Shown piece by piece: positions 29,181 through 64,000 of a stretch of 64,000 nt of DNA. The notes beneath the pieces were generated by a model. It did no database searches, had not been told where the DNA came from, and saw only the letters and a program-made list of their open reading frames with translations. The position numbers and the translations under genes were made by a program. Within the stretch, counting starts at the first letter, position 1; each line of letters starts with the position of its first letter. The DNA is taken from contig JBAHZU010000146.1 of NCBI GenBank assembly GCA_037132875.1, positions 926-64,925 of the forward strand, written 5' to 3'. This DNA comes from Pontiella sp. (GTDB lineage Bacteria > Verrucomicrobiota > Kiritimatiellia > Kiritimatiellales > Pontiellaceae).

Positions 29181-30119
29181 GTGTCATTAACCGTTAAAAC
29201 AATGTGGGAAGAGGGGGCGGAGGCTCTTTCGTTGAGCATCATTGCTGGCGAGCAGTATCTGGATCAAATACTTCCGGAAACCACCATGAACCGCCCTGGG
29301 CTGGCATTGACCGGTTTCTTTCAATATTTCGCGAACCAGCGCCTGCAGATTTTTGGATTGGCAGAATTTACCTACCTGAAAAGCCTTTCTCAGGAAGAAA
29401 AGATGAAGCGGCTAGTCGCTCTATTCGAACAACAGATTCCTGGGGTCGTTATTACTCGCAACCGCAAGGTCCCACAAGAAATTTTGGATCTTGCCGAGGA
29501 ATACCAGGTTCCGGTGATGCGAACGCCCATGGTGACAATGAACTTTGTGAACGAATGTACGGTGATCCTTGAAAAACTTACTGCACCGCAGGAGCGTATT
29601 CAGGGCACCTGCATGGAGTTAATGGGAATTGGGGTGCTTTTACGCGGCGATCCCGGCATTGGTAAAAGTGAAACCGCACTTTCATTAATTGAGCGGGGTT
29701 ATAGTTTGGTTTCTGATGATGTCACCGAAGTGCGCCGAACCAGTCGAGGGGGTCTCGTGTGTTGGGCCAATGAGATCACGCGTTATCATATGGAGATCCG
29801 CGGCCTTGGGATTATTCATGTGCCCAGCCTATTTGGTGTTGCTGCAATCCGGCGTCAAACTCAGTTGGACCTCGTGATTGATCTCAAGCAACCGACCGGG
29901 AATGAAGATCGCACGGGGATTAATCCGGATATGATTGAGATTATGGGAGTTCAGGTGCCGTGCATAACGTTGCCCGTCCGGTCCGGTCGCGATATGGCAA
30001 ACATTGTTGAGGTAGCCGCATTGAATCAGAAACTCAAAGAATTGGGGCATGATGCCGCAAAAGAATTGGATGATAAAATTATTACTCGACTGACGAAAAG
30101 GCGGGTGCGCAATGGCTGA
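29181..30119 (+). CDS. hprK: HPr kinase/phosphorylase
   Basis: RPGLALTG, GDPGIGKSETAL, LVSDD, MEIRGLGII, GRDMANIVEVAA. GTG start. Confidence 0.96.
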   Translation: MSLTVKTMWEEGAEALSLSIIAGEQYLDQILPETTMNRPGLALTGFFQYFANQRLQIFGLAEFTYLKSLSQEEKMKRLVALFEQQIPGVVITRNRKVPQEILDLAEEYQVPVMRTPMVTMNFVNECTVILEKLTAPQERIQGTCMELMGIGVLLRGDPGIGKSETALSLIERGYSLVSDDVTEVRRTSRGGLVCWANEITRYHMEIRGLGIIHVPSLFGVAAIRRQTQLDLVIDLKQPTGNEDRTGINPDMIEIMGVQVPCITLPVRSGRDMANIVEVAALNQKLKELGHDAAKELDDKIITRLTKRRVRNG

Positions 30120-59140: not shown

Positions 59141-61407
<2,267 letters not shown>

Positions 61408-61539: not shown

Positions 61540-61570
61540 GAGCCGCACGATCCCACGTGCGGCTCATTTT
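61540..61570 (+). terminator. Probable intrinsic terminator after icd
   Basis: GAGCCGCAC-N8-GTGCGGCTC-ATTTT. Confidence 0.6.
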
Positions 61571-61843
61571 GTTTAAAGATAGGCAACTATTCAACACGCC
61601 GATTTTGAGTTGAATAAGGAGCGATAGCCGAGCTTGAGCTAATTTCTCATTGCGCCAAGTCCCCGCAAGCTGCCATTTTTACGGCAGATAAAGCCAGGAT
61701 GTTTCTGAGTCCCTGATAAATGTTCCGTTTTATCCATAATTTTAAATTATAAAATTATTTTTATGGATAATAGCAAGGCTTAATGATATTGTCTTTGTAT
61801 AGCGTGGATCTTAAACTTGTTCATTTAAGTGCGGTAAGGTAGG

Positions 61844-61936
61844 GCGGAACCCATGCTGAGTTAGCTCCTAAGTTCAAGATCGTAAAAGGGGAATGCCTGC
61901 ATTTATTCCCATGTCAGCTCACCCGTAACGTCAGGA
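61844..61936 (+). other. Degenerate attC-like site (right arm clear, left arm poor)
   Basis: TTCCCATGTCAGCTCACCCGTAACGTCAGG (61906-35) matches the right arm of the attC at 62407-62437. Confidence 0.45.
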
Positions 61937-61958
61937 CATAAGAATTAAAGGATAAAAT

Positions 61959-62354
61959 ATGCTAGAAATAATAATCCTGTGCAGTCTCTATGGAGCACTT
62001 GTTCCAAAGGTTAAAAAGAAAAACAGAAGCAAGTGGTTACCCTTAATTGCTCCAGCCCTTTGGTTGTTGGGTGAGTTTGTTTTAGCATTCATTGTAGGAA
62101 TTATTTTTTATTTTAATGGAATGAGTGCTGAGAACATTGAGTTTTACATGCAAGGCGTAGTCTGGGCGGGAGGAATTATAGGAGCAGGAATTGCATTTCT
62201 GATTATTCATAAGCTCCCCGTTAAATCCTTAAAATGTCCAGAGTGCCAAACCGAATTTAAATTAGTTTCTGAGCTAGGCACAGCGACGTGTACGAATTGT
62301 GATACCAAACTAAAAATCTGGTTTAACAAAGTAAAAAAACTACAGGTTGCCTAA
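61959..62354 (+). CDS. Gene-cassette membrane protein with C-terminal Zn ribbon
   Basis: Three TM segments, CPEC...CTNC; the stop codon lies inside the GCCTAAC inverse core. Confidence 0.75.
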   Translation: MLEIIILCSLYGALVPKVKKKNRSKWLPLIAPALWLLGEFVLAFIVGIIFYFNGMSAENIEFYMQGVVWAGGIIGAGIAFLIIHKLPVKSLKCPECQTEFKLVSELGTATCTNCDTKLKIWFNKVKKLQVA

Positions 62355-62437
62355 CCAGAGGTTGGGTCTGATATGGACACGGCCTATTTTTCAGGGCAAC
62401 GTTTTCTTCCCATGTCAGATCACCGATAACGTTCAAC
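62349..62437 (+). other. Integron-type attC site (89 bp)
   Basis: GCCTAAC-cagag-GTTGGGTCTGATATGG ... CCATGTCAGATCACC-gataac-GTTCAAC: inverse core, imperfect L boxes with an extra base, core GTT. Confidence 0.7.
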
Positions 62438-62455
62438 CTAAAAAAGGTAAACTAA

Positions 62456-63445
62456 ATGAATCCTATTCTATTACGAAAAATAGCAATATCGGCTTTAATA
62501 CTATGTGGTGTTCAAGCAAAAGCCTTGCTCCATGAGTTTGAGCTAAAAGATGGACGAACCATTAAGGCTGAGGTTGTCAGATTCAATAGTGCACTTGGGC
62601 AAGTGGATCTAGAAAGAGAGGATGGGAAACGGGTTAAAGTTAAAGCCAACATATTCACCGCCAAGGATCAGAACTACATTAAACAATGGAAAAGCCCACC
62701 CAAAGGAGTTGTGCCGATTCATGCTGGTACAAACACAGGAACAGACCCTGACTTTGGCGACTATTCGATAACGGTGAATGGTTTCTATATGGATGAATAT
62801 GAAGTGACCAGTGAGCTCTGGGAAAAAGTCTATAAATGGGCAATTTCACACGGATATGAGTTTGATAATTCCGGCGATGGAAAAGGCGCGAAATATCCAG
62901 TCCAAATGATTAGTTGGTACGATTCTATAAAATGGTGCAATGCCAGAAGTGAAATGGAAAATCGTAAACCAGCATACTTTGTAAATGGTACTATCTACAA
63001 AGACGGTCAGCACGCTCCAGAATGTGATTTCGATACGAACGGATTTCGACTCCCTACCTGTAAGGAATGGGAATACGCGGCACGAGGAGGACTAGTGGGG
63101 AAGCGTTTTCCATGGGGCGATACCATTTCCCATGACCTCGCAAATTATAACGCGAGTTCATCCTGTGCGTACGATGAAAGCAGCAGACTACACCCCGAAT
63201 ACAGAGGGACGGGGGATGAAAGCGATACCAGTCCCGTCGGGAGCTTTCCCCCTAATGCGTATGGCTTATACGATATGGTCGGAAATGTTAATGAATTTAA
63301 TTGGGATGAGTTGAAAGGAGGGCGCAGTACCCGTGGTTGCAGTTGTACCAGTGCGGCACGCTATGGCCGTTGTGGAGCGGATGATGCCAGCAACTCTCCA
63401 GATTTCATATTTAGTGGTTTAGGATTTCGTACCGTCTGCAAATAA
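62456..63445 (+). CDS. Secreted SHD1-like plus FGE-sulfatase (SUMF1) domain protein
   Basis: Signal peptide; HEFELKDGRTIKAE; FYMDEYEVT, ISWYDSIKWCN, FRLPTCKEWEYAARGG, NAYGLYDMVGNVNE, GFR. Confidence 0.88.
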   Translation: MNPILLRKIAISALILCGVQAKALLHEFELKDGRTIKAEVVRFNSALGQVDLEREDGKRVKVKANIFTAKDQNYIKQWKSPPKGVVPIHAGTNTGTDPDFGDYSITVNGFYMDEYEVTSELWEKVYKWAISHGYEFDNSGDGKGAKYPVQMISWYDSIKWCNARSEMENRKPAYFVNGTIYKDGQHAPECDFDTNGFRLPTCKEWEYAARGGLVGKRFPWGDTISHDLANYNASSSCAYDESSRLHPEYRGTGDESDTSPVGSFPPNAYGLYDMVGNVNEFNWDELKGGRSTRGCSCTSAARYGRCGADDASNSPDFIFSGLGFRTVCK

Positions 63446-63475
63446 ATAAGGGCAGAATAATATAGGGACAGGGGG

Positions 63476-63657
63476 GATCCGCTTGATCTTCATCCGCGTC
63501 AGCGTTTCCCATTCCATTCGCATCGTGCTGGCGTAGAAATATTTGATCCCACTATAGCGATCCGCATCGTCGAAGGCGTCCTCTTTGCCTTGTTCTTGCC
63601 ATACAAAAGATATTCCTGTGCCTCCTTCGATCTAAAGAAAGTATACGTCTTTTCGAG
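63476..63657 (-). pseudogene. Tyrosine recombinase N-terminal (SAM-like) fragment, frameshifted
   Basis: Joining two frames near 63555 gives QEYLLYGKNKAKRTPSTMRIA|YSGIKYFYASTMRMEWETLTRMKIKRI, typical of integrases found beside IS91-like transposases. Confidence 0.6.
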
Positions 63658-63799
63658 CACCCCCTATTCAGACTCCGCGGATGAGATAAAATACCGACTT
63701 CAATTAATAATAGGAGTCGTTCATGTTTCACATGGCTAGCGACAACTACATTTACCAACCAACGACAATTACACTTACCGATTAATTAGCCGATAATCG

Positions 63800-64000
63800 G
63801 CACTCATTTGAACGGAGGAAATGGGTGCGGACTACGGATCAACAGGTAAGGAGGTTTATTTTCCGCAGATACATAAGCCGGGAAAGCGTCTCTCTTTCGA
63901 TTTTACGCATATGGATTCTTTGGCGATCACGATTGGAGGCCAGCCTTTTGATCATTTGCTTTTTCACGCGGTTTTAACCTTTTCGAATTGGCAGTGGATT
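63800..64000 (+). mobile_element. istA: IS21-family transposase IstA fragment (runs off the window; N-terminal HTH missing)
   Basis: From 63821: GADYGSTGKEVYFPQIHKPGKRLSFDFTHMDSLAITIGGQPFDHLLFHAVLTFSNWQW. The upstream FERRKW is in another frame. Confidence 0.75.

Follow-up and report, generated by a model that had tools for sequence, protein, structure and literature searches.

The attC sites of class 1 integrons ('59-base elements') are imperfect palindromes with a variable loop, bounded by R'' and R' cores that contain AAC and GTT, with the crossover at G|TT. Such sites recombine as folded bottom strands. Sedentary chromosomal arrays, of which the Vibrio superintegron with its Vibrio cholerae repeats (VCR) is an example, are large and have attC sites that are specific to the lineage and similar to each other, with an R' of the form GTTRRRY. 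Here we describe a segment that is very probably a fossil piece of an array of integron cassettes, in a Pontiellaceae chromosome, on the 3' side of icd, the gene for monomeric isocitrate dehydrogenase (IDH). It lies in a stretch of 64,000 nt from Pontiella sp. (GCA_037132875.1, contig JBAHZU010000146.1, positions 926–64,925, forward strand), which is called the window below.

The closest described elements are those that lack an integrase. A cluster of attC sites that lacks integron integrases (CALIN) comprises two or more such sites within 4 kb, on one strand, with no integrase nearby (Cury et al. 2016, PMC4889954). As in a CALIN, or in a single attC site lacking an integron integrase (SALIN), the window has co-oriented promoterless open reading frames (ORFs) with attC after them, no intI within 64 kb, and a fragment of an insertion sequence (IS) at the edge. 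The small size of the element also fits, two-cassette elements being the commonest class of CALIN (Loot et al., 10.1101/2022.09.11.507474). The window differs from these elements in having one passable attC, one half-site and a 6-base stub, and in its clear mutational decay.

An attC family of the Pontiellaceae and Kiritimatiellales

The assignment depends on a family of repeats that is found well beyond the window. One genome of each species was scanned by pattern, which gave more than 119 stretches with repeats of this family, nearly all from Pontiella, the Pontiellaceae isolates B1224, B12219 and B12227, Kiritimatiellales, and a few related metagenome-assembled genomes (MAGs) of the Planctomycetes–Verrucomicrobia–Chlamydiae (PVC) group. 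The matches in other phyla amount to a handful, about as many as chance predicts. The suggestion in a first-pass annotation of the window, made from its letters alone, that the attC family is specific to a lineage is therefore borne out. Within an array, 10 to 20 or more of the sites alternate with unrelated, co-oriented ORFs. In one such array, on a contig of a Pontiella sp. MAG (L007, JBNKVA010000017.1), there are about 21 intergenic elements built on the same plan as the complete site of the window, with a left end NNNNAAC-CAG... and a right end ...TCAC....AAC-GTTNNNN.

The structure of the family was analysed in an alignment of 103 sites. The two main (L-box) helices are paired in 99% and 96% of cases, against at most 42% in slid controls, and compensatory changes are found in four of the five pairs of each. 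A further 5-bp helix is located in what appears to be a spacer, and two of its pairs covary strongly. Read on the top strand, the non-Watson-Crick cells of this helix are C.A or A.C in 85 cases and G.T in one, and on the bottom strand the former become G.T wobbles. This ratio of 85:1 identifies the bottom strand as the one that is folded. The internal loop is 2x1 in 89 of the 103 sites, with two nucleotides on the R''-L'' arm and one opposite, and one more base is unpaired on the same arm, ahead of the main stem.

The boundaries of the repeats are equally characteristic. The triplet GTT is retained in 108 of 112 sites, and the base that follows it, at position 4 of R', is C in 48, G in 34 and A in 28, and never T. 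The four variable bases of R' in one site are fully complementary to those of R'' in the next site in 81% of 100 adjacent pairs, drawn from 12 arrays; the same complementarity is seen in 4% of controls that use the site's own R'', and in 4% of random pairs. Chimeric sites of this pattern arise when the integrase makes its crossover at G|TT (Cury et al. 2016, PMC4889954). Genes for the integrase itself, called with TIGR02249 (cut-off 265 bits), stand next to arrays of these attC sites, in divergent orientation, in a Kiritimatiellales MAG (L051, 404 bits) and in a Pontiella sp. MAG (L088, 400 bits). The repeat family is an integron attC family.

The Pontiella arrays resemble the Vibrio superintegron in having from 10 to more than 20 cassettes, similar lineage-specific attC sites, a lower G+C content and a divergent intI at the end. 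They differ from it in their lineage, which is Kiritimatiellota, in an R' in which GTT is followed by C, G or A instead of having the form GTTRRRY, and in an L box composed of three short helices, with 9-nt arms between the R boxes and the main stems; the window, moreover, holds a fragment only. With class 1 attC sites they share the cores, the G|TT crossover, the imperfect palindrome and the variable central loop, but there is no similarity past the core, there are no resistance genes, and the location is not a plasmid or transposon.

Some further observations concern the extent of the family. The assemblies of Pontiellaceae B12219 and B1224 contain dozens of scaffolds of 0.3–5 kb, each bearing attC sites, and in the Pontiella MAG E1E2.bin.11 no fewer than 60 sites are spread over several contigs. 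Such fragmented scaffolds, with so many sites, suggest that arrays of the family are large and defeat short-read assembly. In Pontiella sulfatireligans F21, the type strain, lone sites are present on its two large scaffolds (L045:6349-6437, 73.5 bits, and L082:5031-5117, 52.6 bits). Scattered cassettes far from arrays seem to be common in the lineage.

Sites and cassettes in the segment

The window contains two cassettes, one complete attC, here called attC1, and the half-site of another, called attC0.

61890–61936, plus strand: attC0, 3' half-site (right arm and R') of a preceding attC, from a right-arm profile and pairwise resemblance
61931–62431, plus strand: cassette 1, 501 bp, with a 28-nt leader, ORF1 and its own attC, from the ORF call and homologous cassettes
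62349–62437, plus strand: attC1, the only complete attC, an 89-nt imperfect palindrome, from covariance model R1
62432–63457, plus strand: cassette 2, truncated, with a 24-nt leader, ORF2 and an R'' stub, from Pfam and homologous cassettes

attC1 runs from GCCTAAC (62349–62355) to GTTCAAC (62431–62437). In order, it has R'' GCCTAAC, the spacer CAGAGGTTG, the stem GGTCT-GA-TATGG, a 33-nt loop, the stem CCATG-TC-AGATC, the spacer ACCGATAAC and R' GTTCAAC. R'' fits the consensus RYYYAAC exactly. R' has C in place of a purine at position 4, C being the commonest base of the family there. The covariance model R1 was built from 21 sites, none of them from the window, of which 20 came from a Pontiella MAG and one from the Logan metagenome contig L004. 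attC1 matches this lineage-specific model over all 88 of its positions, with 47.8 bits (E 7.7e-12), so that the palindrome of the first-pass annotation is also recognised by a covariance model. Nothing else credible was found with R1 over the 64 kb. The other match, at 29734–29767 (12 bits, E 0.5), consists of two R boxes only, 16 nt apart and overlapping a long ORF, and was taken as chance. The 89-bp palindrome ending in GTTCAAC was correctly described in the first-pass annotation, whereas the gap to the next ORF, which starts at 62456, is 18 nt and not 19.

The right arm of attC1 occurs a second time, ahead of the first ORF, as had been noticed. The 26-nt motif TTCCCATGTCAG.TCACC..TAACGT is found at 61906–61931 and at 62407–62432, giving two matches in the window against none in 100 shuffles; as a direct repeat the arm measures 30 nt, with 87% identity. 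The upstream copy is attC0, whose 5' limit near 61890 is approximate, being read from an alignment listing. Its R' is GTCAGGA (61930–61936), in which the crossover triplet appears to have mutated from GTT to GTC. The near-complementarity of this sequence to GCCTAAC that was pointed out earlier amounts to five of the seven bases. With a sequence-only profile of the right arm, the two copies rank first and second in the window, attC0 with 12.8 bits (E 0.011) and the other with E 0.045. Against the full covariance model with filters off, attC0 obtains 8.9 bits (E 0.2). It has no left arm, and folding is absent (z about 0). Its right arm is closely similar to the sites that flank homologues of ORF1 in two other arrays, L131 and L132, which end in GTTAGGC. 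The plural in the original description of attC sites is therefore not upheld: there is one full palindromic site, and the upstream copy is a half-site that does not fold.

ORF1 (61959–62354) encodes a membrane protein of 131 residues, and its stop codon TAA lies inside the GCCTAAC of attC1, as originally read. The protein has a C-terminal CxxC...CxxC zinc ribbon; its Pfam matches are weak and all fall under the curated cut-offs. Four homologues are present in the protein collection, with 66–78% identity, and all of them lie within arrays, with differing neighbours. The family thus has members in the window, L131, L132, L004 and L002. L131 has the order attC-ORF1-attC-ORF(181 residues)-attC-ORF(108 residues)-attC, and L132 the order attC-GH16-attC-ORF1-attC. 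In L004 the homologue comes after methyltransferase cassettes, and an attC-like site can be seen before it by eye, with no match to the model. The L131 and L132 cassettes begin with G|TTAGGC, the exact complement of their own R'' GCCTAAC; for cassette 1 of the window, three of the four variable boundary bases are complementary. In L002, a JGI contig (L002:1-13924), the homologue lies in an array with longer repeats, of 100–300 nt and 90–96% identical. This contig also bears a gene for a reverse transcriptase of 463 residues (RVT_1) and three matches to the attC family, and the reverse transcriptase gene might be a group II intron within the cassette array.

ORF2 (62456–63445) encodes a protein of 329 residues, with an N-terminus resembling a signal peptide and an FGE-sulfatase/SUMF1 domain (PF03781, E 1.5e-35). 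Its homologues in the protein collection are many, and FGE homologues occur in the arrays L007, L133–L135 and L136; in L007 the neighbours of the homologue are a ClpP-like gene on one side and a gene for an acetyltransferase on the other. The FGE cassettes of L007 and L133–L135 begin with G|TTCTGC and have an R'' GCAGAAC that is followed by a full attC. Cassette 2 of the window begins with G|TTCAAC, so that two of the four variable bases are complementary, where the homologues are perfect. After ORF2 there is a stub of R'', GCAGAA (63452–63457), with T at 63458 where the homologues have C, and the similarity ends there. No attC was found downstream of ORF2 with the covariance model, filters off, and the stub was not detected by a sequence-only profile of the left arm, which caught even attC1 weakly.

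Both ORFs are full length, and both are under purifying selection: dN/dS for ORF1 is 0.14–0.19 against three homologues, and ORF2 is saturated at synonymous sites, with a proportion of non-synonymous differences (pN) of about 0.15. The contigs of the homologues have rows of small, unrelated ORFs in one orientation, at distances of about 100 bp. The homologues occur in different arrays, with different neighbours, which shows the two genes to be independent, mobile cassettes; their homologues are found separately, and not as a syntenic pair without the repeats in relatives. No defence match was obtained for either ORF with PADLOC. A conserved pairing of a small protein with an FGE protein was considered and rejected, since the 131-residue ORF immediately ahead of the FGE homologue in L136 shows no relationship to ORF1 (BLASTP E 0.006, over 34 residues). 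In that Logan contig (L136:134-540) the FGE start G|TTCTGC is kept, the unrelated ORF spans the junction, and there is no attC between the two genes, which perhaps form a double cassette that has fused or that lacks an attC.

Flanks of the segment

The cassettes lie between a housekeeping region and the remains of a mobile element, with the following features.

61540–61575, plus strand: intrinsic terminator of icd, a 10-bp stem with 8 G-C pairs, followed by ATTTTGTTTA
63458–63844, no strand: non-coding debris in place of the rest of the attC of cassette 2, with no match to Pfam, to the model or to the left-arm profile
63845–64000, plus strand: fragment of an IS21-family transposase gene (istA), from NCBIfam NF033546

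On the left, icd occupies 59185–61407, and the 20 kb upstream are of a housekeeping nature, with accA, a recN-like gene, a porin gene, ABC transporter genes, a miaB-like gene and icd itself. The IDH protein is 80–82% identical to those of Pontiellaceae isolates and of Pontiella desulfatans. In isolate B12227 the order upstream is the same as in the window (two ABC transporters, an FAD-binding protein, a miaB-like gene and icd), and directly 3' of icd there is a rhamnosidase gene. In isolate B12219 and in P. desulfatans, leuCD-like genes are found 3' of icd. The icd loci of these three relatives contain no attC detectable with the covariance model. The segment is thus absent in relatives, which carry other genes there, in agreement with the earlier proposal of a remnant array inserted after icd. 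Alignment to the relatives' icd regions gave no boundary for the segment, as similarity is lost at or before the icd stop codon.

The terminator of icd is the last feature with a host-like G+C content ahead of the acquired segment. Directly past it, G+C drops from about 0.54 to about 0.39, and over 61580–63460 it is 0.42, against 0.50 for the remaining window. In Pontiella arrays G+C is 0.40–0.47, against 0.53–0.59 in the chromosomal regions of the relatives. The low G+C of the segment matches that of the arrays, and thus marks it as acquired DNA.

Two further features were observed ahead of the half-site. Exactly at the G+C transition there is a perfect 7-bp inverted repeat, ATTCAAC-N13-GTTGAAT (61589–61615), with AAC and GTT cores. 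It scores 5 bits against the attC covariance model. It may mark where the acquired DNA joins the chromosome, or be what is left of an attC whose interior was deleted. An AT-rich, non-coding near-palindrome, TTATCCATAATTTTAAATT / AAATTATTTTTATGGATAA, is located at 61730–61770, and the Logan contig L001, which covers the same locus, terminates inside it, at 61739. A search against Rfam matched no attC family; the sole match was a sub-threshold small RNA, which overlaps the icd terminator.

On the right, the longest reading frames of the debris have no Pfam match, and it does not resemble what follows the FGE cassette in relatives. The istA fragment begins about 390 bp beyond the R'' stub. It covers positions 103–151 of the 294 of NF033546 (E 2.1e-9), lacks the first 100 or so codons, has in-frame stop codons upstream, and runs past the end of the window. 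The second cassette had been described as having no recognisable attC and lying against mobile-element debris, and both points hold. The source contig exceeds the window in length by only about 1.2 kb, and the assembly therefore probably breaks at the IS21 repeat.

No intI was found in the window: tblastn with the IntI of L051 over the whole 64 kb gave a best E of 0.5, as expected from the original reading that no integrase is in view. The searches that had been proposed, for further copies of the arm and for intI, found copies throughout the family, and intI beside the arrays in L051 and L088 and not in the window. A complete integron has intI and attI at its 5' end; here, the 5' side consists of icd and its terminator.

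Origin and present state of the segment

On the basis of these observations, we hypothesise that the lineage's own IntI once built the array, recombining folded bottom-strand attC sites at G|TT. A fragment would then have broken from this larger array, most likely through a rearrangement or an IS-mediated break. This route is favoured because the left end is a half-site, with no clean G|TT junction, and among the ways in which CALINs may arise, Cury et al. (PMC4889954) discuss breaking off by rearrangement. What would remain is, in order, the right half of an attC, the ORF1 cassette with its whole attC, and the FGE cassette with its attC cut after R''. The sites would subsequently have decayed, with GTT changing to GTC, the bulge lost, stem pairs broken and one site truncated, and they are probably no longer active. 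Since no integrase is nearby and the sites are decayed, the two genes are probably fixed in place, as ordinary chromosomal genes.

Several points weigh against this interpretation. attC1 is the single statistically solid site in the window, and it would be unconvincing on structure alone: it has no asymmetric bulge, its internal loop being 2x2 and able to pair, and its bottom strand folds with -8.9 kcal/mol (z -0.6, 89 nt), which is no better than shuffled sequences. For the identity of attC0 the grounds are a match of 25 nt to the profile (E 0.011) and pairwise resemblance, and for that of the R'' stub six identical bases and their position. There are other signs of a degenerate site. attC1 ranks 99th of the 103 sites by score, and two pairs of its inner helix are broken, as read from the segmentation. 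It folds better as the top strand (-14 kcal/mol, z -2.1, 98 nt), the opposite of the family trend. By comparison, the bottom strand of the attC of L131, which belongs to the closest ORF1 cassette, folds with -20.1 kcal/mol (z -3.8), in the full R-box/L-box shape. The extrahelical bases that had been anticipated for the folded bottom strand are thus found in the family, on the R''-L'' arm, and not in attC1. We read attC1 as a decayed former attC.

The segment might alternatively have arisen by direct insertion of the cassettes by IntI at a secondary genomic site, of the attG type. IntI inserts cassettes at GWT sites genome-wide, and this has been proposed as an origin of SALINs and small CALINs (Loot et al., 10.1101/2022.09.11.507474). 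The lone family sites in the core chromosome of P. sulfatireligans are consistent with such events, as is the GTTGAAT at 61609–61615, located where G+C drops. However, direct insertion would be expected to give a clean G|TT, with no right arm of an attC upstream, and about 45 nt of a preceding attC are present. To regard the 316 bp from 61616 to 61931 as an earlier decayed cassette finds no support, and the right end, truncated beside IS debris, is a better fit to rearrangement. We therefore consider an attG-type origin unlikely.

A different possibility concerns the present state rather than the origin, namely that the segment is a small CALIN that is still active, in which an IntI encoded elsewhere in the genome excises or exchanges cassette 1 via attC1 and the half-site. 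According to the survey of Cury et al. (PMC4889954), one CALIN in two lies in a genome that encodes an IntI elsewhere; attC1 aligns with the family model over its full length, and neither ORF is disrupted, each showing purifying selection. Against this, a left arm is missing from the upstream partner, which cannot fold and which has GTC where 108 of 112 family sites have GTT, while the downstream partner is truncated. The low rank of attC1, its lost bulge and its weak bottom-strand fold point the same way, and continued activity is improbable, more so than an attG-type origin.

Finally, the 30-nt repeat could in principle have no integron link, and serve two co-regulated genes as a common promoter, operator or leader, or be an intergenic repeat of the repetitive extragenic palindrome (REP) or miniature inverted-repeat transposable element (MITE) type. 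Each copy ends 24–28 nt ahead of a start codon, with AAAGGA or AAAGGT next to it, and there are only two copies in 64 kb. But the repeat forms the right arm of an 89-nt structured element, and the family of this element covaries, has the cassette-boundary signature and adjoins intI; the two ORFs are found apart elsewhere, promoter-like matches are no commoner than in shuffles and no Rfam family is matched. We give this explanation almost no weight.

The fossil fragment of an array thus remains the preferred interpretation. In strict terms its class is borderline, between SALIN and CALIN, with one good attC and one half-site. The count of two sites depends on attC1 (E 8e-12) and, as the second, the right half-site, with E 0.2 for the full model and E 0.011 for the right-arm profile. 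The original label of CALIN-like is accurate as to the lack of an integrase, and borderline as to the two sites, one of which is whole.

Cassette remnants of integrons of the CALIN/SALIN type, to which this element belongs, are known and common, and it leaves the understanding of integrons unchanged; what is specific is the lineage and the attC family. In the literature that was searched we found no paper on Pontiella with integrons, and the literature that names Kiritimatiell* together with integrons does so incidentally only. At the level of the locus, the finding accounts for two orphan genes and for the drop in G+C after icd, as horizontally acquired cassette DNA that is now immobilised. 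At the level of the family, it shows that a family within the Kiritimatiellota has typical integrons with their own recognisable attC sites. The 103-site alignment is a clean natural case of bottom-strand selection, and could be used as a lineage-specific model for attC annotation.

Pontiellaceae are marine anaerobes known for degrading sulfated polysaccharides. The cargo seen in the arrays includes FGE-domain proteins, a GH16 glycoside hydrolase and methyltransferases. That the Pontiellaceae have large and multiple chromosomal integron arrays, with their own attC family, is demonstrated here. We tentatively suggest, at slightly less than even chances, that these arrays are so far undescribed, that cassettes or pieces of arrays are spread over core chromosome sites, as at icd, and that the cargo varies the handling of polysaccharides. 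If this is true, integrons would be a route by which the Pontiellaceae vary their polysaccharide-handling repertoire.

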